Source: an uncultured Bacteroidales bacterium
GTDB lineage: Bacteria; Bacteroidota; Bacteroidia; Bacteroidales; F082
Length of the DNA: 64,000 nt
Assembly (NCBI GenBank): GCA_900318085.1
Contig: ONJF01000012.1
Span: forward strand, 7,926 to 71,925
Reading direction: 5' to 3'
Below the pieces are notes generated by a model. That model was not told the DNA's origin and made no database searches. It worked only from the letters and a program-made list of their open reading frames with translations. A program made the translations under genes and the position numbers. Of this stretch, positions 16,769 to 26,371 are shown in pieces (within the stretch, counting starts at the first letter, position 1; each line of letters begins with the position of its first letter).

Positions 16769-17809
16769 TTAAAGGCGGATTCCATCCGCCCCTTGCCTCT
16801 CCACAAGCAACCTCCCCATCTCGTTAAGCGCAACAAAACGATACCGCAAAGAATCGGTTGCAACAGACGTGTATTCGAAATGTTTGGCCTCAGCCTTGCG
16901 GCGAAGCGTTCCCTCGACAGATTGACGGATGAAAGGTGCACTGAACGACTCTTCCGTCGGCTCCAAAAGCAAAAGCTTTCCTTGAGAGCACGCCTCAAAA
17001 TAAACACCACCAGGCTTGTAATATCGCTCATGCGGCGAACCTTCCTCGGGGAAGCCTTCGTTGAGAAGAATGACCAAAGGGAATCCTTGAGTCCGAAGCG
17101 TCCGCGCAATGAGTTGCTCACCCTTGCTAATGGAAGCCGTATAGGTTACCGCTCCATTTTGCGCCGACCGCAACACCGCTTTCAGCCTTTCTTGGACTTG
17201 CTCGTCCGTGGCATTGCGCGACATTTCCACCAATTGACGCTCTGGCCAGTCGAGAAGGAAATGATTGCCCATCGAGGTGAAAAGCAAACCACAAGTTTCT
17301 GTCCTACGATACATTCGAAAAAGGTCAGGGTTTTGTTTGCGGTGCCATGCCCGCTCTGCGTTGGCGTAAACATAGTTTATCATCGCCTGAAGTTGTCCTT
17401 TATGCGTGAGCACTCGGTAATATAGCGGGCCATCGTACAAGTTTCCTTCATAGCCCATCTTTCGGGCTTCAGCCTTGCAGCCTTGCATATAGCCTCGCAC
17501 CACTTCTTTGATGCTCCGCGTCATGGTGCGTCGAACCTGCAAAACAATATGGTGATGGTCGGGCATGACCTTGTCTGCAAGGATTTTTATCTCAGGGCAA
17601 AGTTCAAGCATCCGTTGCTGTTGGTTGATTAATACCCAACCTATAGCCGTCTTTTCCACCTCGGACTGAATGCCATTGTGGGTAAGTTTGCCGAAAATGG
17701 GTTCACGCCCTTTGGCCACCATAGTCACATGCACGATGCACGGCTTGTGCCATGCGCCAAGCTTCTGCCAAGTGGAAATCTCATTAGATATGTTGGTGTT
17801 GGTAGTCAT
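16769..17809 (-). CDS. Y1/HUH transposase-like protein (IS200/RayT-like core with a long C-terminal extension)
   Basis: ORF trimmed to MTTNTNISN. VMPDHHHIVLQV fits the HUH motif. INYVYANAERA fits the Y-x2-N-P/A-x2-A tyrosine helix of REP-associated transposases. Confidence 0.5.
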   Translation of the reverse strand: MTTNTNISNEISTWQKLGAWHKPCIVHVTMVAKGREPIFGKLTHNGIQSEVEKTAIGWVLINQQQRMLELCPEIKILADKVMPDHHHIVLQVRRTMTRSIKEVVRGYMQGCKAEARKMGYEGNLYDGPLYYRVLTHKGQLQAMINYVYANAERAWHRKQNPDLFRMYRRTETCGLLFTSMGNHFLLDWPERQLVEMSRNATDEQVQERLKAVLRSAQNGAVTYTASISKGEQLIARTLRTQGFPLVILLNEGFPEEGSPHERYYKPGGVYFEACSQGKLLLLEPTEESFSAPFIRQSVEGTLRRKAEAKHFEYTSVATDSLRYRFVALNEMGRLLVERQGADGIRL

Positions 17810-17927
17810 TTTCGTTTGGGGCTTTTGCGGCGGGAATGGAATTCCCGTGGAAGGGACAGAACACAATGCAAAAGTAAGATTTATTTCGATACAAAAAGTT
17901 TATTGCTCCATTTCGGGGAAAACCATT

Positions 17928-17972
17928 AGCCTGTGCTTCAATTCGGCACAGGCTTTTGTTTTCTTTGCTGCG
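17928..17972 (+). repeat. Island module copy: hairpin + T-tract + -7-like box
   Basis: AGCCTGTGC-ttcaattcg-GCACAGGCT (9-bp stem), then TTTTGTTTTCTTTGCTGCG. The ATG follows 59 nt later. Confidence 0.65.
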
Positions 17973-18030: not shown

Positions 18031-18702
18031 ATGAAAAGTAGCAGATATACAAACATCGGTAAAGGCTCAATTGTCGGGGAAGGCATCTTCGTAAGATTTC
18101 CCGAGCTCGTCCCTGCTTCTTTGGACAATTATTGGAACAGCAAGAAGCATAAAAAGCTGTTGATAGTTGGGGAAAGCAACTACTTTGACGATGATGTCGG
18201 CAGCATTTTTAAGGACCCAAAAGCGTGGTATTCGGGAGCGGACAAACAACATTTGATACCAGAAGAAAAAAAGAAAGATGTAAGCAACTTCAAAGGATAT
18301 AAGACTTTTGATAGGTTGTGTAAATCCATGAATGAAGTGTTGAACGAAGCACTTTGTGAGCATGTCTATGAGAAGGCATTGTTCTATAATTATTTTCTGC
18401 GTCCAGCCACGGTGAGGAAAAACAATAGATCATTCAAAAAAGATTGCACCCAATTAGACCGTGATGTGGCAGGCAGCGCATTATGTGGAATCATCGACCT
18501 TGACCGTCCTGATGTGGTTATATTCGTCAGTAAATATGCACACTCGGAATTTATGAAGCACTTGGAATCAAACGAATTATCGTATGATATCCGGATTGAT
18601 TTCGTCAATCATCCTGCACATCTTGCCTCATGGCATCACAGAAATGGAAACGGGAAACAGAAGTTCGAAAGACTATTGAGGGAATACTGGATGGTAAAAT
18701 AA
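18031..18702 (+). CDS. Hypothetical protein with a uracil-DNA-glycosylase-superfamily-like motif pattern
   Basis: 223 aa. LLIVGESNYFDD sits where UDG motif A (GEAPG/GQDPY) lies. YNYFLRPA...C..L...P.VVIFVS fits the middle of the fold. FVNHPAHL fits motif B (HPS). By-eye only. Confidence 0.35.
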   Translation: MKSSRYTNIGKGSIVGEGIFVRFPELVPASLDNYWNSKKHKKLLIVGESNYFDDDVGSIFKDPKAWYSGADKQHLIPEEKKKDVSNFKGYKTFDRLCKSMNEVLNEALCEHVYEKALFYNYFLRPATVRKNNRSFKKDCTQLDRDVAGSALCGIIDLDRPDVVIFVSKYAHSEFMKHLESNELSYDIRIDFVNHPAHLASWHHRNGNGKQKFERLLREYWMVK

Positions 18703-18742
18703 TCACATTTTTATCAACCCCTGTATGTTTCATAGAAATGTT

Positions 18743-18750
18743 TACCTTTG
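18743..18750 (+). promoter_or_regulatory. -7 box TACCTTTG
   Basis: Matches TAnnTTTG, 57 nt before the ATG at 18807. Confidence 0.45.
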
Positions 18751-18806
18751 CTGCAAATATCATCTTGGCATTGTGCCTACAAGTGCAAAACCCGAACTGG
18801 CCGCCC

Positions 18807-19151
18807 ATGAAAAACTATCAATGCAAGAAATGTGGCATTCTGATTAAAACAGAGCGACAGCCCAATGCGTTCAATTGTCGGGTTGGAAACTACCACGATT
18901 GGAACGACCTCGGCGAAGTCGGTTGCGAGAACTACCGATGCAAGAAATGCGGTCTTCTCGTCGAAAGCAAAAGCGCCCCATCTTCTTTTGGATGCACTGA
19001 TGGAGGCTACCACAATTGGCAAGATTTATGTCCTATAGGCACCGATGTCTATCAATGCAAGAAATGTGGAATTCTGTTGTATGCCTCAAAGTCGCCCAAT
19101 GCATTTGACTGCCCTTCGGGAGAGTGTCATCAGTGGAATAAATTGAATTGA
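18807..19151 (+). CDS. Small protein made of three tandem 39-aa zinc-ribbon-like repeats
   Basis: ORF 18630..19151 trimmed to MKNYQCKKCG. There are three repeats of Y-x-C-K-K-C-G-x14-C-x5-H-x-W-x-x-L (C-x2-C...C-x5-H). Confidence 0.6.
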   Translation: MKNYQCKKCGILIKTERQPNAFNCRVGNYHDWNDLGEVGCENYRCKKCGLLVESKSAPSSFGCTDGGYHNWQDLCPIGTDVYQCKKCGILLYASKSPNAFDCPSGECHQWNKLN

Positions 19152-19171: not shown

Positions 19172-20785
19172 ATGAATAGTCAAGATAACGATTTATTATT
19201 GCTTGAAAGCATGCTTGGGATTGCTGTTTCAAGAACCGCAGGAGTTCAAGTCGCTGTGGATAAAAATCTTCCCGTGCCTTTCCCTAAAAGTATTCATTAC
19301 GAGTTGTACAAGAACCACATAGAATTGCATATTGAAAGTTCTACATATAGATCATTATGCGAATATCTTGAAAGGACTCTTCCTAATAACGACATCGCTA
19401 AAACTGAAAAAAGAGGTTTTTGCGAATACGCTTATGTATTGAACAGAAGAGTTGAAGGATGGAGTAATATAGAAGAGTTAGGGAATGCCATTATCGAACT
19501 GCGTAATATCGTTGAACCTGTGCTAATGCAGTATTGCGAACAAATAGCCGAGAACTTTGAACTAGCAAAGGTTCTTGGCGATTATTATGAAGCACAAGAA
19601 GCGGCCTTGCCATTTCATATCAATGTAATTGACGAGCTTCATGCCAACGAAAACGCTCACACAAGGATTCTCACGCATTTACTCAAATACAAAGAAGATG
19701 GGAAGCTTGTTATTCTTGCTTCTTTTCTAAAACAACTTCCTACATTCAATGTTGGGTCTATTGATATTGAGAAGTCAAAAGTCTATTTCAACAGAGACAA
19801 TATTGATGGCTTGATAGAGAAAGATGGCGAGTATGCTGTCATCATTGAAAACAAAATCCACTGGGCTGTTGATCAAGACAAACAGATTGAACGTTATGTG
19901 AATACAGAAATAGAAAGAGGTGTCCCTTCGGATAACATTTGGGTAATATATCTGACGAGAGACGGAAGAAAAAAAGTTGAAAGTTATAGTCTTACGAAAA
20001 AGACAAAAGAGATTTTGGGTGACCGTTTTCTGGAAATGGATTATTACCATAACATCCTCCCATGGCTTAAAGATACTGTTTTGCCTAATTGTAGAGTTAG
20101 AGAGGAATGGTTGGAGTCTGCTATTAAACAGTACATTGATCATTTAGAAGGATTGTTTGATATAAGGGATTCAAGAAAAGTGTTCCGTAAAAAGGTACAG
20201 GGACAAATAGCCAATAGTATAGGTTGTACGGAAGAAATGTCAAGAGGTGAGGTCTATTCAAAATTCCATGCCTATTTACATACTTTGGAAGAATTGCAAA
20301 ATATTGTCAGCAATTCCATGGAGAGTTTGATAAAACCTATAATAGAACGATTGCAAAATACTACCATAGAAGTGTTAGGCGAACTATGTCCTAATGAAGA
20401 ATTTGGTTTTTACAATGGCATACATAATGGTTTTTATCAAGTGTTCTTAAAGAAATGGACAACGAAAGTCCATTTCGAGTGGATCCCATTAAATGAAAAA
20501 CGTTTGCTTTCTGGAACCGAATACATTTTGGTATTACATGTTGAGCAAAATGACATTCATGAACGTTTCAATCAAGTTCTAAGTGACAATTTTTTGATGA
20601 CTAAGGCGAAAGAATTAAGTTTAAAGAAAACTGATAAGACTACCTTTTATAAGAATGTGATTACAACAAATAGATCAATGTCTGACATGACACATGAGGA
20701 GTTTTCCATATTTCTTCGTGAAGCATACAAAGATGTAAATGACATTCAGATGTTCGTATCAGAATACATTCTAAATGTTGAATAG
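19172..20785 (+). CDS. PD-(D/E)XK nuclease family protein (PDDEXK_4-like core with N- and C-terminal extensions)
   Basis: Trimmed to the ATG (MNSQDND). INVIDELHANENAHTRILTHLLKY followed by NIDGLIEKDGEYAVIIENKIHW (D...ExK) and QIERY. Confidence 0.6.
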   Translation: MNSQDNDLLLLESMLGIAVSRTAGVQVAVDKNLPVPFPKSIHYELYKNHIELHIESSTYRSLCEYLERTLPNNDIAKTEKRGFCEYAYVLNRRVEGWSNIEELGNAIIELRNIVEPVLMQYCEQIAENFELAKVLGDYYEAQEAALPFHINVIDELHANENAHTRILTHLLKYKEDGKLVILASFLKQLPTFNVGSIDIEKSKVYFNRDNIDGLIEKDGEYAVIIENKIHWAVDQDKQIERYVNTEIERGVPSDNIWVIYLTRDGRKKVESYSLTKKTKEILGDRFLEMDYYHNILPWLKDTVLPNCRVREEWLESAIKQYIDHLEGLFDIRDSRKVFRKKVQGQIANSIGCTEEMSRGEVYSKFHAYLHTLEELQNIVSNSMESLIKPIIERLQNTTIEVLGELCPNEEFGFYNGIHNGFYQVFLKKWTTKVHFEWIPLNEKRLLSGTEYILVLHVEQNDIHERFNQVLSDNFLMTKAKELSLKKTDKTTFYKNVITTNRSMSDMTHEEFSIFLREAYKDVNDIQMFVSEYILNVE

Positions 20786-20814: not shown

Positions 20815-20857
20815 CTTGTGCCTCAATTCGGCACAGGCTTTCTTTTTCTTTGCGGCG
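20815..20857 (+). repeat. Island module copy
   Basis: CTTGTGCC-tcaattc-GGCACAGG, then CTTTCTTTTTCTTTGCGGCG. The ATG follows 17 nt later. Confidence 0.65.
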
Positions 20858-20873
20858 TTAATCGTAACGCATT

Positions 20874-21539
20874 ATGACCATACAAAAAGCAACATCAACG
20901 ACAAATCCAACCGTTAAAGTAATCGGCATTGGCTGTGGCGGCAACAATATCGTCAACCATATAAGCCAAAGCAATTTGGAAGGTCTCTCCTATGTGGCCT
21001 GCGATATGGATGCCAAAGTGCTCAAGAAATCAGTAGCCGCCACGACCCTGCAACTCGGCAAAGACGGACTTGGAAGCGGCAACAGCCCTGAAAAAGCACG
21101 CATCGCGGCTGAAGAAAAAACAAATACCATAAAAAAGTTGTTCGACGACAAACCTTCATTGGCCTTTGTCGTCACCTGTCTTGGAGGAGGATGCGGCACG
21201 GGTGCGGCTCCCGTAATCGCCCGTGAGTCAAAAATGATGGGCATCACGACTGTTGTCCTTGCCACTTTGCCATTCGAATTGGAAGGCGAACGCAGATTCT
21301 CGCAAGCCTCGGAAGGAATTCAAAACTTGGCAAGAAACGCGGATGCCCTCTTTCTGCTCAACAACCAGTACATCAAAGAACAATACTGCGACTTGCCCAT
21401 AAACCAAGCCTTCGCAAAGGCCGATGACCTGTTGGCGGAAGTAGCAAAATGCCTAATCCGTTCCATAACGGAGCCACAACAAGAGACAAAGAGAACCTCA
21501 AGAATAAAGGAGTTTTTCAGAAGACTGAAATGCAAATAA
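20874..21539 (+). CDS. FtsZ-like protein consisting only of the N-terminal GTP-binding domain
   Basis: 221 aa. KVIGIGCGGNNIVNHI (T1), CLGGGCGTGAAPVIA (tubulin signature), LPFELEGERR, LFLLNNQ and AKADDLLAEVAKCLIRSITEP (H7), then a short basic tail. No T7 loop or C-terminal domain. Confidence 0.75.
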   Translation: MTIQKATSTTNPTVKVIGIGCGGNNIVNHISQSNLEGLSYVACDMDAKVLKKSVAATTLQLGKDGLGSGNSPEKARIAAEEKTNTIKKLFDDKPSLAFVVTCLGGGCGTGAAPVIARESKMMGITTVVLATLPFELEGERRFSQASEGIQNLARNADALFLLNNQYIKEQYCDLPINQAFAKADDLLAEVAKCLIRSITEPQQETKRTSRIKEFFRRLKCK

Positions 21540-21544
21540 AAGCG

Positions 21545-21970
21545 ATGGCATCGAAAACATTCAACACGGCAACTATCGCCCGTCTGCTCAGTCACGAGGA
21601 TGAGCACGGCATGGGGCGTGTCTTCATGTACACTTTCCTTAATGAAGTGATACGGCAGAAAAGGCCATTCCCGTTCGATTGTGAATCCGCTCAAGTAAAC
21701 CCCAACTTGATGATTGTTGATAAACAAGGTAGAAGCATCGCCGTTGAGTATAAGCGCAATCGGCTTAATTTAACCCTCAACGACCAACAAAGTGAGATTT
21801 CCCCACGCATCGAATACAAAGATGAAGCTTATCGTCAAGTCCTTCTTGATTGGCTTGCCGCCTGCATCCAATACACTTCGCTGCAACCTGAACTTCGCAA
21901 AGAACTAACAAGATATGCCCAATCCATTCAAAGAAGAATTTGGTTTACAAAAGTTTTGCCTTTGCATTAA
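21545..21970 (+). CDS. Miniature PD-(D/E)XK-like protein (collapsed paralog of the 19172..20785 core)
   Basis: 141 aa. LSHEDEHGMGRVFMYTFL, IVDKQGRSIAVEYK and YRQVLLDWLAAC parallel HTRILTHLL, EKDGEYAVIIENK and YHNILPWLKDTVLPNC of the large nuclease. Starts 5 nt after the FtsZ-like stop. An alternative ATG at 21530 overlaps that gene by 10 nt. Confidence 0.45.
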   Translation: MASKTFNTATIARLLSHEDEHGMGRVFMYTFLNEVIRQKRPFPFDCESAQVNPNLMIVDKQGRSIAVEYKRNRLNLTLNDQQSEISPRIEYKDEAYRQVLLDWLAACIQYTSLQPELRKELTRYAQSIQRRIWFTKVLPLH

Positions 21971-22001
21971 TTCGGCACAATCTTTTTGTTATCTTTGCCG
22001 C
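21961..22001 (+). repeat. Island module copy (degenerate left arm, canonical -7 box TATCTTTG)
   Basis: TTTGCATTAATTCGGCACAATCTTTTTGTTATCTTTGCCGC. Overlaps the preceding stop codon. Confidence 0.55.
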
Positions 22002-22015
22002 ATAAAACCAACCTC

Positions 22016-22984
22016 ATGGAAAACCAAATCGTCATATACCAAACCGACAACGGTCAGCCTGCCATTGATGTCAGGCTGGAAAACGAAACTGTATGGCTTA
22101 CACAAGCACAGATGGCGATGCTTTTTCAGAAGGATCAGTCTGTTATTGCACGTCATATCGCCAATGTTTTTAAAGAAGGTGAATTGGATAGAAATAGTAA
22201 TATGCAAATTTTGCATAATACTCTTTCCAAGTACAAACCAACCACCATTTACAATCTCGATGTCATCATCTCCGTAGGTTACCGAGTAAAAAGTCAGCGA
22301 GGTGTGCAGTTCCGCCAATGGGCCAATAAAGTGCTGAAAGACTATCTGCTGAAAGGCTATGCCGTGAATGAGAAGATTCGCCGAAACCAAATTGGGGAAC
22401 TGCGGCAATTGGTGCAAATGGTGGGCCGGACGTTGCAAAACCAGCCCTTGCTGAAAAGCGAAGAGAACCAAGCCTTGTTTGACATTGTTGTGGATTACAC
22501 CTACGCCCTTGACACGCTTGACGATTACGATTATCAACGTTTGGGCGTGAAAGAGACCACGCAAGAGGAGAAGTTTCAAGCGACATACGACAACGCCATG
22601 CAAGCCATAGCAGCATTACGCGAGAAGTTCGGGGGCAGTTCGCTGTTCGGCAATGAGAAAGACGACTCCTTCAAAAGCAGCATTGGTCAAATCTACCAGA
22701 CTTTTGGCGGTGAAGACCTATATCCGAGCGTGGAAGAGAAAGCGGCCATGCTACTGTATCTCGTCACCAAAAACCATTCGTTCAGCGACGGCAACAAACG
22801 CATTGCGGCCACGCTGTTCCTGTGGTTCCTCAACAACAACGGCATCCTCTACCGCGAAGACGGCAGCAAACGTATTGCCGACAACACCTTAGTCGCACTG
22901 ACCTTGATGATCGCCGAGAGCAAGCCCGAAGAGAAGGATGTAATGGTGAAGGTGGTGGTGAACTTGATTAATCAGAAGAATTGA
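22016..22984 (+). CDS. RhuM-family N-terminal domain fused to a Fic/Doc (death-on-curing type) domain
   Basis: Trimmed to MENQIVIYQTDNGQPAIDVRLENETVWLTQAQMAMLFQKD (RhuM-like). The C-terminus carries the Doc motif HSFSDGNKRIAA. Confidence 0.7.
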   Translation: MENQIVIYQTDNGQPAIDVRLENETVWLTQAQMAMLFQKDQSVIARHIANVFKEGELDRNSNMQILHNTLSKYKPTTIYNLDVIISVGYRVKSQRGVQFRQWANKVLKDYLLKGYAVNEKIRRNQIGELRQLVQMVGRTLQNQPLLKSEENQALFDIVVDYTYALDTLDDYDYQRLGVKETTQEEKFQATYDNAMQAIAALREKFGGSSLFGNEKDDSFKSSIGQIYQTFGGEDLYPSVEEKAAMLLYLVTKNHSFSDGNKRIAATLFLWFLNNNGILYREDGSKRIADNTLVALTLMIAESKPEEKDVMVKVVVNLINQKN

Positions 22985-23017
22985 TTTATTGAGCAGATTA
23001 ATTGCATAATTTTCAAG

Positions 23018-23060
23018 CATGTGCTGTGATTTGGCACAGGCTCTTGTTTTCTTTGCAGCG
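23018..23060 (+). repeat. Island module copy
   Basis: CATGTGCTGTGATTTGGCACAGGCTCTTGTTTTCTTTGCAGCG. The ATG follows 25 nt later. Confidence 0.6.
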
Positions 23061-23084
23061 TAGAAACAACAAAACCTAAATGCA

Positions 23085-23618
23085 ATGAACGATTATTATG
23101 GGAGCGTCCCTTTAGAGGAATACGAACAAATCCTGGCCAACCGCGATTATTGGGACAACATTTCTGGCGAATGGCAAATGCGTTCAAAAATGGAAGACAA
23201 ACTTGTGCGATTAGGGACATTCGTGCAAAGAGGCGGCGACCTAAACCGCGTGATTGCCCTTTATGCAGAAGGACGGGAATACACCTACCGTGTGACGATA
23301 CAACATTGTATAGAACGGTATCTTGAGGTATTAACCAAAAAACGCATTCAGAATCTGACACTTCGCTTGTACAAACTCGAAAAAGAAGAAGCGGTAAAAC
23401 TGCTTTCCGAGATGCTGAAAGTGAGCATCGGCGTAGATTTCAGGTACGACAAATACACCTCAAGACAGGTTTCTTTCGGAATTCTCGACACTAGGAATCT
23501 GGATGCCGAAGGAATACTCTCTGCCATAGAACAGGAGCATCGCCAGGCACATCCCAACGAAAGCATTGAGGAGGTCAGGAAAAGAGCTCATACTTGGATT
23601 GGGGATAGTTGGTGGTGA
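23085..23618 (+). CDS. Hypothetical protein
   Basis: 177 aa. No domain recognised. Confidence 0.45.
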   Translation: MNDYYGSVPLEEYEQILANRDYWDNISGEWQMRSKMEDKLVRLGTFVQRGGDLNRVIALYAEGREYTYRVTIQHCIERYLEVLTKKRIQNLTLRLYKLEKEEAVKLLSEMLKVSIGVDFRYDKYTSRQVSFGILDTRNLDAEGILSAIEQEHRQAHPNESIEEVRKRAHTWIGDSWW

Positions 23619-23633
23619 TATAGAGATAATTAT

Positions 23634-23641
23634 TATTTTTG
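23634..23641 (+). promoter_or_regulatory. -7 box TATTTTTG
   Basis: Matches TAnnTTTG, 25 nt before the ATG at 23666. Confidence 0.45.
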
Positions 23642-23665
23642 CAATGCAATAAAACTTCTAAAAAA

Positions 23666-24559
23666 ATGAAACAAGAAAATTCGATTATTACAATTCAAGA
23701 ACTCTTGAAAGACAGAGGTATTGATTTTGATGCTAAAAAAGTTAAACTAGTAAGACATGACAGTTTAAGAACTCCTAGAGTTCAAGATAAAATCATTTTT
23801 GATGGTACATTATACGAAATGTATAGACGTGATTATCAAAGATTTATTAATTACCAAAACGAGCAAAAAATTAAGAACTTTAAAAATGTAGATTATATTG
23901 TTTCTTTTTTAAGCGAAGAAGGAACAAGGGCAAGATTAATTGGTGTATATCAAAACCTAGGGATAAAAAACACGATTGATGGTGATGGCGCTATTTTTAA
24001 TTTTCAAGAAATACTGGCTTTTTCAAACCTTAAAGACAAAATCGTCATTGATTGGGGGAAAGGAACTCGCCAGTGGATTCAAAACTGGGAAACAAAAAAA
24101 GAAATAATAAGAATTGACGAGGGTCTAATAGATAGAGACATTCCTCTTTTTACTCGTTATGAAGATGTAATACTCAGTTTTTCAGAGTTAAAGAAAATCA
24201 TTGAGTCAAATGACTCAGAATGGAAGTCCGTATTGGAAGCTTGCAACTGTGTATATCTCATTTTGGATAAAAGTAACGGGAAGCAATACGTAGGAGTCAC
24301 ATATAAGAATAGTCAAGAAGGACAAAAAGGTGGGATTTGGAATAGATGGTCAGAATATGTCAAGACGAATGGTCATGGCAATGATAAAACATTAAAAGAA
24401 AAATGTGATAATAATCCGCATTATGCTGAACTCAATTTTCAATGGAGTATCTTGGAAACATTGCCAATAAATGTAATTCCCACAATTGCTATTGATAGAG
24501 AAACTTTATACAAAAAGAAACTTGGCACCAGGAACCACGAAAACTATAATAACAATTAA
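23666..24559 (+). CDS. GIY-YIG nuclease domain protein with an unknown ~190-aa N-terminal domain
   Basis: Trimmed to MKQENSI. The C-terminal CVYLILDKSNGKQYVGVTY...WNRWSEY...FQWSILE fits GIY-(10-11)-YVG, R and E. The gene is visibly much more AT-rich than its neighbours. Confidence 0.6.
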   Translation: MKQENSIITIQELLKDRGIDFDAKKVKLVRHDSLRTPRVQDKIIFDGTLYEMYRRDYQRFINYQNEQKIKNFKNVDYIVSFLSEEGTRARLIGVYQNLGIKNTIDGDGAIFNFQEILAFSNLKDKIVIDWGKGTRQWIQNWETKKEIIRIDEGLIDRDIPLFTRYEDVILSFSELKKIIESNDSEWKSVLEACNCVYLILDKSNGKQYVGVTYKNSQEGQKGGIWNRWSEYVKTNGHGNDKTLKEKCDNNPHYAELNFQWSILETLPINVIPTIAIDRETLYKKKLGTRNHENYNNN

Positions 24560-24655: not shown

Positions 24656-24812
24656 AGCCTGTGTCATATACTTGCACAATTTATGCTCCATAAAACCAAT
24701 CCCTTGGATGAAGAGTTAGAGCGCGAGGCAACCTGTGCAAAAATAGCACAAGTTCAAACAGAAGGGAAAAGGATGGTGAAAGGGGTGGTGGGCCTTATCA
24801 ATCAGAAAACTA
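24656..24812 (+). pseudogene. Internally deleted remnant of a second module + RhuM-Doc cassette
   Basis: AGCCTGTG...GCTCCATAAAACCAATCCCTTGGA parallels GCCGCATAAAACCAACCTCATGGA at 21997-22020. ATGGTGAAAGGGGTGGTGGGCCTTATCAATCAGAAAAC parallels the last codons of 22016..22984 (ATGGTGAAGGTGGTGGTGAACTTGATTAATCAGAAGAA). Confidence 0.55.
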
Positions 24813-24818
24813 AATACT

Positions 24819-25727
24819 ATGTCCAAAAACCAAATCAACAAATATGTCTGGCTCGTAGAAACGCTCTACCATGCCAAGAAAATCACCCTAAAGGAAATCA
24901 ACCGCAGGTGGCTCGATACCGATTTGAGCGAGGGATTAGAGATTCCGCGCCGCACGTTCCACACCTGGAAGAACACGGTGGAAGATATGTTCGGCCTCGT
25001 CATCATGTGTGACAAGAGCGACGGCGACCGCTATTACATCGAGAACCGCGAGGTGCTTGAGGACGACGGTCTGCAACGCTGGCTGCTCAGCACCATGTCG
25101 GTCAACAACACACTGTTGGAAAACAAAGCGCTCAGCGACCGCATCCTGTTGGAAAGCATCCCCTCAGGCCAGGGCTTCCTCGCCACGGTCATGGAAGCCA
25201 TGAAGAAAAACCGATTGCTGGAAATCACCTATAAAGGCTTTTGGAGCGAAAGCGAGCACACCTTCCCCGTGGCGCCCTACTGCGTGAAGCTGTTCCGTCA
25301 ACGGTGGTACATGGTGGGCAACAGCGTCTACGAAGACAAGATCCGAATCTATTCCTTGGATCGCGTACTGGAGGCCAGACTGTCGGAGGAGACCTTCAAA
25401 TACCCCAAGAAATTCAGCCCAGAGAACTACTTCAAAGGCTGTTTCGGCATCATTCGCGACGAGGATTGCCCCATCGAGACCGTGAAGCTGAAAGTAAGCG
25501 CCGACCAAGCCAACTACCTGCGTTCCCTACCCTTGCATCCTTCACAAAAGGAGTTGGTGCATACAGGCGAATACAGCATCTTCTCCGTTGAGGTGCGACC
25601 CACCTTCGACTTCCAGCAAGAACTCCTTTGGAACGGTGATGCACTTGAAGTGTTGGAACCACTTTGGCTGCGTAAAGAGATGGCTGGCATGGTCAAACGG
25701 ATGTGGAACAATTACAACAAGAAATGA
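24819..25727 (+). CDS. WYL-domain transcriptional regulator (HTH-WYL)
   Basis: 302 aa. N-terminal wHTH-like segment, and RQRWYMVGNSVYEDKIRIYSLDRV matches the WYL core. Confidence 0.7.
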   Translation: MSKNQINKYVWLVETLYHAKKITLKEINRRWLDTDLSEGLEIPRRTFHTWKNTVEDMFGLVIMCDKSDGDRYYIENREVLEDDGLQRWLLSTMSVNNTLLENKALSDRILLESIPSGQGFLATVMEAMKKNRLLEITYKGFWSESEHTFPVAPYCVKLFRQRWYMVGNSVYEDKIRIYSLDRVLEARLSEETFKYPKKFSPENYFKGCFGIIRDEDCPIETVKLKVSADQANYLRSLPLHPSQKELVHTGEYSIFSVEVRPTFDFQQELLWNGDALEVLEPLWLRKEMAGMVKRMWNNYNKK

Positions 25728-26218
25728 ATTCCTTCGCCGCCATAGACTTCGAGACCGCCAACAACGAGCGCACTAGCGTGTGCAGCGTCGGCGTGGTAAT
25801 TGTGAAAGAAGGCGAGTTCGTGGACTCCTTTTATTCGCTAATCCAGCCTGAGCCGAATTATTACCTCTATTGGAACACCCTCGTCCACGGTATCACCAAA
25901 GAGGACACCGAGGATGCGCCAGTGTTTCCTTTTGTCTGGCAAAAGATAGAGCCGCTTATTGAGGGTCTGCCTCTCGTGGCGCACAACAGCCCTTTCGACG
26001 AAGGTTGCCTAAAGGCCGTGATGCGCTGCTATCAGATGGATTACCCCGACTATCAGTTCTACTGCACCTGTCGCGCCTCGCGCAAACACTTCGGAAAGCT
26101 GCTGCCCAACCACCAGCTGCACACCGTGGCAGCAGCCTGCGGCTACGATTTAATCAACCACCATAACGCGCTCGCCGATGCCGAAGCCTGCGCCTGGATT
26201 GCACGAGAGATTTTGTAA
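25724..26218 (+). CDS. DEDDh 3'-5' exonuclease (DnaQ/epsilon-like)
   Basis: FAAIDFETAN (Exo I), AHNSPFDEGCL (Exo II) and HNALADAEA (Exo III, H-x4-D). ATGA overlap with the WYL gene stop. Confidence 0.75.
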   Translation: MNSFAAIDFETANNERTSVCSVGVVIVKEGEFVDSFYSLIQPEPNYYLYWNTLVHGITKEDTEDAPVFPFVWQKIEPLIEGLPLVAHNSPFDEGCLKAVMRCYQMDYPDYQFYCTCRASRKHFGKLLPNHQLHTVAAACGYDLINHHNALADAEACAWIAREIL

Positions 26219-26222
26219 TTCC

Positions 26223-26371
26223 ATTCGGAATTTACTGTAATTTTGCAGAAAATTCCGAATAGAAATGGTCATCAAATCGGAATTTATTGTAATTTTACAG
26301 AAAAATCGGAATAAAATTAGTTTCAATTCGGAATTTATTGTAATTTTGCAGAAAATTCCGAATAAAAATGG
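26223..26371 (+). repeat. Three tandem ~51-bp copies of a promoter/operator unit; the third contains the ATPase start codon
   Basis: The unit is ATTCGGAAT-TTAYTGTAATTTTGCAGAAA-ATTCCGAAT-ARAAATGG, a 9-bp inverted repeat bracketing the -7 box TAATTTTG. Copies lie at 26223-68, 26275-320 (degenerate) and 26326-71. Confidence 0.75.

Follow-up and report, generated by a model that had tools for sequence, protein, structure and literature searches.

FtsZ filaments grow at the end that exposes the T7 loop, where the incoming subunit adds via its GTP-bound top surface; bottom-interface mutants of FtsZ are toxic and cap the growing filament end, and MciZ caps the bottom interface (PMC8936486, PMC9897490). 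The two domains of FtsZ fold independently (PMC7327170). As cited in PMC8042166 and PMC8936486, an engineered N-domain and bottom-face mutants (Redick 2005; Du 2018) are reported to poison Z-rings, and this has been read as a sign of directional assembly. In C. crescentus, DriD is a single-stranded DNA (ssDNA)-sensing activator of the division inhibitor didA (PMC9186387). Here we describe a natural protein, hereafter FtsZN, that consists of the FtsZ N-terminal GTPase domain and helix H7 followed by a short tail, without T7 loop or C-domain, and that possibly acts against FtsZ itself. It is encoded (20874..21539, + strand, ATG start, 221 aa) in a 64,000-nucleotide (nt) stretch of DNA, hereafter the window, from an uncultured Bacteroidales bacterium (assembly GCA_900318085.1, contig ONJF01000012.1, positions 7,926 to 71,925 of the forward strand). 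FtsZN is an FtsZ-superfamily paralogue with a new architecture and context.

FtsZN retains the N-terminal half of FtsZ

The FtsZN product was matched by the Pfam family Tubulin PF00091 over aa 14-169 (E=1e-29, 104.6 bits, cutoff 33), and a sequence search of solved FtsZ structures matched aa 12-198 (E=5e-40). The ftsZ equivalog TIGR00065 scored 174.3 bits, below its cutoff of 295.2, and only profile positions 13-211 of 353 were aligned. The AlphaFold model (predicted local distance difference test, pLDDT, 78.9; predicted template modelling score, pTM, 0.80) was compared with known structures by Foldseek, and the top matches, dozens of structures, were all FtsZ. They superposed over half of their length, with template modelling scores of ~0.8 when normalised by the query (TMq) and ~0.55 when normalised by the target (TMt), the latter being low because only half of FtsZ is present. 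A first-pass annotation made from the sequence by eye had recognised an FtsZ nucleotide-binding domain in this product and proposed a check of the predicted structure; both the domain and the fold were borne out, and the FtsZ motifs it listed are real, with GGGCGTG in the window protein in place of GGGTGTG.

The chain stops after H7 and a tail of ~20 residues. It has no FtsZ_C Pfam match, and the residues equivalent to N207, D209 and D212 of the T7 loop are T, R and R. No remnant of an FtsZ C-domain was detected by tblastn in the window or any related locus (best E=0.28). Together with the half-profile match, these observations agree with the earlier claim that the T7 loop and C-domain are missing. 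No full-length ftsZ is present in the window, and FtsZN had no match to Tubulin_2 (PF13809) at E<=0.1. FtsZN is a member of the tubulin/FtsZ superfamily but not a bona fide FtsZ.

FtsZN represents an old family under purifying selection

A search of 5.8 billion proteins returned 382 FtsZN homologues at E<=1e-10, the best 120 of these 382 being 211-223 aa long and 79-95% identical. Other short forms of 203-233 aa that are 39-48% identical to FtsZN (P0121, P0133, P0135 and P0180) were recovered from an exhaustive search of 50%-identity representatives, and two more members of the truncated family, P0293 and P0311, were added. The nearest full-length proteins are Bacteroidota-type FtsZ with ~46% identity (range 41-48%), indicating that FtsZN is a close FtsZ derivative. 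A neighbour-joining tree of the N-domain was built from 13 truncated proteins and the 70 closest full-length FtsZs. The truncated proteins (13/13) all grouped into a single clade (99/100 bootstraps), within which the distances ranged from 0.66 to 1.0.

The pairwise ratio of nonsynonymous to synonymous substitution rates (dN/dS) of FtsZN had a median of 0.27 across 15 loci. Given the monophyly and this ratio, the truncation is old and maintained, and FtsZN is an old, monophyletic family under purifying selection rather than a fragment. The first-pass annotation had asked whether the protein was an old truncated form or a broken duplicate, naming neutral evolution and a matching 3' ftsZ fragment nearby as signs of the latter. 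The former was confirmed, as the dN/dS indicates purifying selection and the tblastn search for the fragment came back empty.

In public databases, FtsZN homologues are annotated only as 'hypothetical protein' or generically as 'cell division protein FtsZ'. FtsZN had no match in PHROGs, P0133 had none in IMG/VR, and the sequenced phage and plasmid collections yielded only canonical ftsZ-like matches with <60% identity. On these searches, a phage origin of FtsZN was rejected. One locus (L013, DAIOUZ010000067.1) comes from a metagenome-assembled genome labelled Candidatus Limiplasma sp. (Firmicutes), and has FtsZN (78% identity), the WYL regulator (56%) and the exonuclease (90%), with no copy of the downstream gene p141. 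Its assignment to Firmicutes reflects either a binning error or horizontal transfer.

The nucleotide face is remodelled in a conserved way

We compared the 13 truncated members with 124 full-length FtsZs residue by residue. Residue numbers follow the E. coli FtsZ sequence, and the alignment positions of T4 and T7 agree with this numbering. N43 is replaced by D/E and D166 by Q in 13/13 truncated members, and the replacements of G20 by C, T44 by M/L, G103 by C and T108 by C/F are each found in 12/13, while Q47 is variable in the clade (K, N, S, M, A, E). The window FtsZN has C/D/M/K/C/C at G20/N43/T44/Q47/G103/T108, positions that are invariant or near-invariant in the 124 full-length FtsZs. Residues kept in the truncated clade are G21, G22, N24, D45, G71, G105-107, G109, T110 and G111, and further along P134, F135, E138, G139, R/K142, N165, F182 and D186.

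The agreement between the consensus of the truncated family and that of FtsZ differed by region. It was highest in T3, T4 and S1 (82-88% of positions), followed by T5 (67%), and fell to 22-32% in S4, S6 and H7 and to 12-50% in T2/H2, T6/H6 and the H6-H7 loop. In FtsZ, S4, S6 and H7 pack on the C-domain. We read this pattern, from the alignments, as retention of base/ribose recognition and of the loop scaffolds, with the surroundings of the gamma-phosphate, Mg and T7 docking likely remodelled in a conserved way across the family. The former interdomain surface would likewise have been rebuilt for single-domain life. In S. aureus FtsZ, D46, Q48 and R143 are the nucleotide-side contacts to the T7 loop of the neighbour (PMC8936486), and the Q47K variant of E. 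coli FtsZ serves as a monomeric mutant (PMC13423816).

Cysteines line the pocket of the window FtsZN at C21 (20934-20936), C102 (21177-21179) and C107 (21192-21194). At the equivalents of G20, G23, G103 and T108, no member of the family has fewer than two Cys, and some have four. These could form a metal or redox site that replaces the gamma-phosphate contacts. A four-Cys metal cluster in the pocket was set aside as a side hypothesis: C43 already exists in Bacteroidota FtsZ ('LCNTD') and was inherited from there, and some subfamilies have F at position 108.

A conserved amphipathic helix ends the protein

The C-terminus of FtsZN (aa 207-221, TSRIKEFFRRLKCK, 21492..21536, + strand) is a basic amphipathic helix, as judged from the model, the hydrophobic moment and the conservation. 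The helix is predicted at aa 207-220 in the AlphaFold model. Its hydrophobic moment of 0.79 is the highest in FtsZN, its net charge is +5, and the last 14 residues are almost invariant within the subfamily of the window. A basic amphipathic C-terminal segment was found in 12/13 diverse members, the exception being P0180, the shortest. The first-pass annotation had described a short basic tail; basic it is, and it is also a conserved amphipathic helix.

Some tails have a core (KAFFKR, KAFFRR, SYIKK or SFIKN) similar to the PA[FY][LI]RR core of the Bacteroidota FtsZ C-terminal peptide, with the conserved Pro missing, and the tails of other subfamilies fit the generic amphipathic pattern only. 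We also take the tail to resemble membrane-targeting helices of the MinD/FtsA type. The tail is thus a putative membrane-targeting or FtsA-binding element, and in either role it would place FtsZN where FtsZ filaments are anchored. Alternatively, it could dock back on the exposed face of H7. The tail is probably important for FtsZN function.

Alternative genes downstream of a conserved core point to the Z-ring

To describe the gene neighbourhood of FtsZN, we focused on 14 genome loci. A 222-aa protein (p222) is encoded directly upstream of FtsZN in 9/14, overlapping its start, and is preceded by a uracil-DNA glycosylase (UDG)-like gene. The window is a variant with a PDDEXK_4 gene in place of the UDG-like and p222 genes. 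The diverged P0133 subfamily, in which FtsZN is 43% identical, has a 236-aa counterpart (p236, 44.5%) and a UDG-like domain (51-57%) fused to a WYL regulator (56%). The gene order there is WYL-UDG, p236, PP2C, DUF6140 and FtsZN, then a tyrosine integrase. The p222/p236 family, represented by L003:9313-9981 and L019:6063-6773, is the most constant partner of FtsZN and is absent from the window. Searches of Pfam, NCBIfam, PHROGs and PDB sequences gave no match for either p222 or p236.

Scanning metagenomes with p222/236 yielded 30 loci. FtsZN lies directly downstream of window-type p222 (>=79% identity) in 14/14 loci, and the order p236-PP2C-DUF6140-FtsZN was found in 3/4 of the p236-type loci. 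Four loci (L051, L052, L053 and L055) have a compact WYL-exonuclease-UDG-like-p222 cluster without FtsZN. In L057, p222 (45% identity) also occurs without FtsZN, and no WYL, exonuclease or UDG-like match was found there. Since the cluster also exists without FtsZN, the conserved core comprises the WYL/WCX regulator, a DnaQ-like exonuclease, the UDG-like protein and p222, and FtsZN is one of several alternative genes downstream of it. The exonuclease is represented in the window by a DnaQ/RNase T-like DEDDh 3'-5' exonuclease (25724..26218, + strand; Pfam RNase_T and NCBIfam DnaQ-family matches), and it adjoins the WYL gene in L033, L051, L053, L055, L058 and L060.

What occupies the FtsZN slot in its absence was informative. 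A 150-aa protein (p150; L051:6719-7171, L053:5391-5843, L052:4757-5245) matched the distal half of a C-domain profile that we built from the 124 closest FtsZs, with 23-25 bits and E ~1e-9 per target, while 2000 shuffles gave at most 8.5 bits. FtsZ_C was its sole Pfam match (E=0.049), and the stretch WGLGEDDSIGEEIFITIILS aligned to the profile consensus iwGvgedeslgdklsvtiiat. By this likeness, p150 appears to be the 'C-half' counterpart of FtsZN. In L055, a 93-aa ZapA-family protein (L055:5989-6270) follows p222-PP2C in the position of FtsZN; it was assigned on Pfam alone (E=9e-10, 39.2 bits, cutoff 23.8), with no match in PDB or NCBIfam. The L055 cluster ends with a Mob_Pre relaxase (L055:7359-8825, - strand), indicating a mobilisable element. 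The occurrence of FtsZN, an FtsZ C-domain-like protein or a ZapA-family protein in equivalent slots suggests the Z-ring as the target of the module output, and this substitution is the strongest argument for it.

The first-pass annotation had coupled FtsZN to the downstream gene p141, separated from it by 5 nt. This coupling is confined to one subfamily; p222/236, the UDG-like, WYL/WCX and DnaQ-like proteins are more deeply conserved partners. A type II toxin-antitoxin pair of FtsZN with p141 or p222 would suit the 5-nt gap to p141 and the overlap of p222 with the FtsZN start, yet FtsZN also occurs without either partner.

The WYL regulator and shared hairpins of the island

A WYL + WCX regulator (24819..25727, + strand; Pfam WYL and WCX matches) is a frame gene of the island. 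Its homologues beside FtsZN are 56% (L019), 44% (L025) and 43% (L033) identical, four diverged subfamilies in all. The only solved-structure matches of the WYL protein were C. crescentus DriD entries, at E ~1e-4.

Directly upstream of FtsZN (20815..20873, + strand), a hairpin (20815..20837) is followed by a T-rich run and a TTTG-containing '-7-like' box. The hairpin has an 8-bp stem in a scan for terminator-like structures and a fold energy of -12.3 kcal/mol, and the earlier claim of such a module before the 221-aa gene is therefore correct. The module of hairpin, T-run and CTTTGCNGCG is found before each island cassette, with hairpins at 17928..17954, 20815..20837, 21971..21985 and 23020..23038, always on the + strand. 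In all groups, the FtsZN operon is preceded, ~30 nt before its first gene, by a hairpin, a T-run and a conserved TTTTGTTAYTTTGCRCC box, and the stems co-vary. The copy that follows p141 (21955..22016, + strand) has its left arm within the last p141 codons and is weakened in the window, where LPVH* of the relatives is LPLH* by a G-to-T change in the stem; intact copies were found in L004, L007 and L012. The module could serve as a terminator/promoter junction, as an operator or in both roles, and its repetition may insulate the cassettes, place them under joint regulation or supply homology for cargo swapping.

A palindrome without T-run, TGTGC-N7-GCACA (24734..24750, + strand), lies upstream of the WYL gene as a candidate operator, with a second, imperfect copy at 24660..24678. 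The pattern TGTGC-N5-11-GCACA has six occurrences in the window, where 0.64 would be expected, and four of the six are within the island. L007 and L012 have kept the palindrome that precedes the WYL gene. A tandem repeat (26219..26369; 2.9 copies, 51-nt period) was observed just upstream of the AAA_14/DUF4143 gene, each unit combining an inverted repeat (ATTCGGAAT...ATTCCGAAT) with a TAATTTTG box that is similar to the -7 promoter element of Bacteroidetes.

FtsZN as a possible antagonist of FtsZ

We tentatively favour, at a little less than an even chance, the reading of FtsZN as an inducible, membrane-proximal antagonist of FtsZ that is the output of a WYL-controlled module found on mobile elements and in a chromosomal defence hotspot. 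In this proposal, the tail would recruit FtsZN to the site of the FtsZ filaments by way of the membrane or FtsA. There, FtsZN would present its nucleotide face alone, either to FtsZ subunits at their T7/bottom face or to the growing end of the filament. By occupying the bottom face, it would give neither a new elongation end nor a T7 loop for hydrolysis, and the net action would be capping or sequestration, similar to SulA or MciZ. FtsZN would not be constitutively active, being the output gene of the module of WYL/WCX, DnaQ-like exonuclease, UDG-like protein and p222/236. Once set off, the module would halt division; the trigger could be, for instance, ssDNA that arises from damage, phage replication or element transfer. 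The fold, the truncation, the age of the family, the selection on it, its derived substitutions, the neighbourhoods and the exchange of genes in the slot are observed here, and the FtsZ binding, membrane targeting, WYL control and trigger of FtsZN are points that we infer. With filaments growing at the T7-exposing end, a protein that has the nucleotide face only would be the natural shape of a capper or sequesterer. In 2005, Osawa and Erickson reportedly found that aa 1-195 of E. coli FtsZ alone poison Z-rings.

Several observations weigh against such an antagonist. The nucleotide face of FtsZN is non-canonical, with N43D/E, T44M/L, a variable Q47 (K in the window) and T108 C/F, and the consensus of the H6-H7 loop, T6/H6 and T2/H2 is far from that of FtsZ; with the T7-docking positions remodelled, docking of FtsZN to the T7 loop may be weakened or changed. 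The poisoning by the N-domain in the 2005 work was reportedly weak and needed a 3-5x excess. ZapA promotes rather than inhibits Z-rings in model organisms, so the slot logic may be 'modulate' rather than 'block'. The DriD match of the WYL protein is weak, FtsZN is found without p222 or an adjacent WYL gene in some contexts (L028, L036), and the case for WYL control consists of gene adjacency and of a shared hairpin, which scores as a plain intrinsic terminator too. The first-pass annotation had suggested that the protein caps or poisons FtsZ filaments. An action directed at FtsZ is backed by the C-domain-like and ZapA-family proteins of the slot, and simple capping is only plausible given the remodelled T7-docking positions.

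FtsZN might instead be a neofunctionalised sensor that makes no contact with FtsZ, its Cys-lined pocket binding another ligand (a GDP-like molecule, a signalling or modified nucleotide, or a metal), or sensing redox; ligand-dependent exposure of the amphipathic helix would then control the module. The substitutions G20C, N43D, T44M/L, G103C, T108C/F and D166Q in 12-13/13 members, the base/ribose contacts kept beside them, the Cys (at least two at positions 20, 23, 103 or 108 in every member) and the divergence of the polymer-contact loops are all consistent with it. We regard this as doubtful, as the C-domain-like and ZapA-family proteins in the slot are hard to explain without FtsZ as the common target.

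The first-pass annotation had also proposed a decoy for phage-encoded FtsZ inhibitors. As a decoy or guard, FtsZN would mimic part of FtsZ and either soak up a phage inhibitor or activate a partner effector such as p141, p222 or neighbouring defence genes. Such a role would suit the presence of FtsZN in defence islands in most contexts and its evolution, far faster than that of the flanking frame genes; a comparison of the window with L033 gave identities of 73-74% for the AAA protein and the exonuclease, 49% for FtsZN and 43% for WYL. A complex of FtsZ with a phage protein is, moreover, the proven immune trigger for CapRel-Ebc (PMC13423816). Against this, the footprint of T7 Gp0.4, the one phage inhibitor for which a site has been mapped, comprises the T7 loop (199-206) and, in the C-domain, residues 262-270 and 292-303 (PMC13423816). 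This site is entirely missing from FtsZN, which disfavours a decoy for this mapped inhibitor, and SulA, MciZ, MinC and MipZ also target the bottom face or the C-domain (PMC9897490, PMC8936486). A decoy should mimic the host surface, yet the surfaces of FtsZN have diverged from FtsZ, and p141 is subfamily-specific and has no conserved catalytic Lys. We consider this role improbable.

We give little credence to the opposite action as well, in which FtsZN, like ZapA, would stabilise or shield FtsZ as a Z-ring protector or modulator and keep division going, for example by covering the face that is attacked by inhibitors of phages or elements. The ZapA-family protein in the equivalent slot of L055 is in line with it, and FtsZN would offer a surface complementary to the Gp0.4 site on FtsZ. 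In S. aureus, polymers of the Q48A and R143K variants are stabilised against disassembly (PMC8936486), and several FtsZN subfamilies have A/S at the Q48 equivalent and K at the R143 equivalent. An FtsZ filament whose bottom face is occupied, however, necessarily stops elongating there, FtsZN lacks the C-domain with which to continue the filament, and a positive action of the ZapA-like protein in this setting is only putative. A decaying, functionless copy of ftsZ has next to no likelihood and is effectively refuted by the even length (219-223 aa) of at least 380 homologues, the deep clade, the dN/dS of 0.27, the conserved tail and substitutions and the lack of a C-domain remnant, local decay of p141 in L006 and L008 being the one sign of it.

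As to the purpose of an FtsZ antagonist, a DNA-damage checkpoint or a mobile-element role is as compatible with the data as abortive infection. The first-pass annotation had argued for a conflict or abortive-infection role from the neighbours; the conflict-type island is real, and it fits a damage checkpoint or a mobile-element role equally well. Neighbours of the module include an integrase (P0133 loci) and a relaxase (L055). In a wider and, in our judgement, unlikely version, the FtsZ halves and the ZapA-family protein would be interchangeable Z-ring effectors of an unrecognised WYL-controlled module that arrests division on foreign or damaged DNA, a new abortive-infection system or immune checkpoint made from parts of the division machinery.

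The downstream partner p141

The gene p141 (21545..21970, + strand, 141 aa) encodes a subfamily-specific partner, a miniature protein resembling PDDEXK_4/PDC-S26. It starts 5 nt after the FtsZN stop codon, a coupling that was noted before and is conserved. The first-pass annotation had proposed a survey of the pair, which was found in 13/14 genome loci of one subfamily; p141 is absent from all other FtsZN subfamilies examined and is not the defining partner. About 760 homologues of p141 were found, with a dN/dS of 0.24.

The PADLOC PDC-S26 models matched p141 at E=1e-10 over two short stretches of profiles ~400 long, and Pfam PDDEXK_4 scored 18.5 bits (E=0.002), below the cutoff of 22.3. It had been proposed that p141 is a collapsed copy of the 545-aa nuclease encoded at 19172..20785. 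The pairwise BLASTP comparison was not significant (E=2.7), and we rejected this origin: only the profile matches are shared, indicating a distant relation. The PD-(D/E)XK likeness thus stands at the profile level and not pairwise, and the putative catalytic Lys is variable. The IVD motif is conserved, and 'EYK' of the window, whose lysine is replaced in most loci, is EHR, EQR, KHR or EHG elsewhere. The AlphaFold model of p141 has low confidence (pLDDT 65.5), and Foldseek found no match for this weak model at E<0.1. From these comparisons, p141 is probably a degenerate, non-catalytic PDDEXK_4 relative. Sister loci have a full-size 368-aa PDDEXK_4-like gene in the same position after the FtsZ-related gene, suggesting where p141 came from.

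Two loci have altered copies. In L006 (2164-2628), p141 has lost 14 aa across the putative active-site strands, and its C-terminus is the product of read-through. In L008 (10654-11157), it is fused in frame to a C-terminal remnant of the WYL protein, indicating that the genes between them were deleted.

FtsZN lies in a chromosomal defence hotspot

FtsZN lies in a chromosomal defence-gene hotspot of ruminant-gut Bacteroidales. The flanks of the island are housekeeping genes: one has GH20, AAA, Indigoidine_A and PfkB, and the opposite one has carbonic anhydrase, amidohydrolase and ABC-F. Between them, the frame is made of p223, a Zn-ribbon protein, FtsZN-p141, the WYL/WCX regulator and the DnaQ-like exonuclease, separated by variable slots. 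Across the loci, the cargo of these slots includes PDDEXK_4/PDC-S26, RhuM-Fic/PDC-S23, UzuA, Nmad2/Nmad3 and AAA_14/DUF4143. The accessory island described in the first-pass annotation is thus real, with PDC-S26, PDC-S23, UzuA and WYL within housekeeping flanks.

In the window, the variable cargo upstream of FtsZN is the 545-aa PDDEXK_4/PDC-S26 protein (19172..20785, + strand), which replaces the UDG-like and p222 genes. The cargo downstream of FtsZN-p141 consists of RhuM-Fic/Doc (PDC-S23; 21986..22984), p177 (23085..23618) and UzuA (23666..24559), all on the + strand. In loci with identical FtsZN, this downstream cargo is swapped for Nmad2/Nmad3 or absent. A comparison of window 21986..24559 with L016:4226-7356 and L017:1635-4805, which have identical FtsZN, showed UzuA against Nmad2/Nmad3 and a 332-aa against a 342-aa RhuM-Fic. 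Different cargo beside identical FtsZN means that cargo turnover outpaces the divergence of frame genes.

The frame gene p223 (18031..18702, + strand) lies at the left of the hotspot with the hairpin module of 17928..17954 upstream, and is kept in most related loci. It had no family match in Pfam, PADLOC, NCBIfam or PHROGs, and its comparison with the UDG-like proteins gave an hhalign probability of 12%. L002 has tandem p223 paralogues (888-1556 and 1830-2546; 90% and 64% identical to window p223) upstream of FtsZN, showing that frame genes, too, duplicate within the hotspot. Overlapping the 3' end of p223, three CxxC...C/H zinc-ribbon repeats with DUF7128/rubredoxin-like matches are encoded at 18630..19151, where gene callers give only a 57-aa product; the repeat copy number varies among loci. 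The left edge of the hotspot has a 365-aa protein (16769..17866, - strand) with weak similarity to IS200/REP-associated Y1 transposases, also present in L007 and L012.

PADLOC v2.0.0 gave only a spurious REase_II match for FtsZN itself (E=9e-4), and its models PDC-S26, PDC-S23, UzuA, PDC-S27 and GmrSD were matched by FtsZN neighbours across the loci. In another lineage, the frame recurs around FtsZN of the P0121 subfamily (AAA ... FtsZN ... WYL-exonuclease), here with two GmrSD, PLD, DUF2442/DUF4160, Schlafen-HTH and PDC-S27 as cargo. P0293 adjoins two GmrSD, PDC-S27 and a DnaB_C/KaiC-like ATPase.

Implications and comparison with known systems

Should FtsZN prove to bind FtsZ, it would represent the first natural family that turns half of a bacterium's own division protein into a Z-ring regulator or weapon. 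It would also be a natural test of FtsZ polarity, as the N-half should cap the growing end and the C-half the other. The analysis defines a conserved uncharacterised module (WYL/WCX, DnaQ-like, UDG-like and p222) linking DNA sensing or processing to division in Bacteroidales, and the DNA-damage and phage responses of this phylum are poorly understood. It further reveals a chromosomal hotspot in which defence cargo (PDC-S26, PDC-S23, Uzume, GmrSD, PDC-S27, Nmad2/3) is exchanged between fixed frame genes.

The first-pass annotation knew of no defence system built this way, and we likewise found no matching defence model or FtsZ subfamily. Neither an N-domain-only FtsZ clade nor the p222 module is described in FtsZ subfamilies, defence models or the searchable literature, and no N-domain-only group is described in a 2023 survey of the FtsZ/tubulin family (PMC9871819). 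FtsZl-1 and FtsZl-2 (Makarova & Koonin 2010; Tubulin_2) are, like FtsZN, divergent and sporadic, lack FtsZ_C and occur in non-division operons (PMC9871819). FtsZN differs from them in matching PF00091 and not Tubulin_2, in being much shorter and in having different neighbours, and we ruled out its membership in these families by the Tubulin_2 result and the neighbours.

T7 Gp0.4, lambda Kil and DicB also represent interference with FtsZ linked to mobile elements or conflict, and FtsZ is a node of phage-host conflict (PMC13423816). Unlike FtsZN, these are small peptides unrelated to FtsZ. As in the DriD-DidA pair of C. crescentus, a WYL+WCX regulator is here genetically linked to a putative division inhibitor, and DnaQ-like and UDG-like genes lie beside FtsZN. 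DidA, however, which is small and membrane-located, acts on FtsN, FtsW and FtsI and not on FtsZ (PMC9186387). The FtsZN module, in contrast to DriD-DidA, is found in defence islands and on mobile elements, and its WYL regulation is proposed from the gene context.

The closest parallels in action are SulA (1OFU), induced in the SOS response, and the filament capper MciZ of B. subtilis (4U39), which are made only under specific conditions and stop growth by occupying the T7/bottom face of FtsZ, as proposed here for FtsZN. Both complexes, SulA:FtsZ 1OFU and MciZ 4U39, were among the structural matches of FtsZN, through their FtsZ part. SulA and MciZ are unrelated to FtsZ in sequence, whereas FtsZN is FtsZ-derived, would use the native nucleotide face and has a membrane-type tail. 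The closest parallel in architecture is the engineered FtsZ N-domain (E. coli aa 1-195), which is likewise an N-domain without a functional C-domain. Such laboratory constructs have a wild-type nucleotide face and no tail, whereas FtsZN is natural and ancient, with a remodelled pocket and T7-docking surface and an added amphipathic helix.

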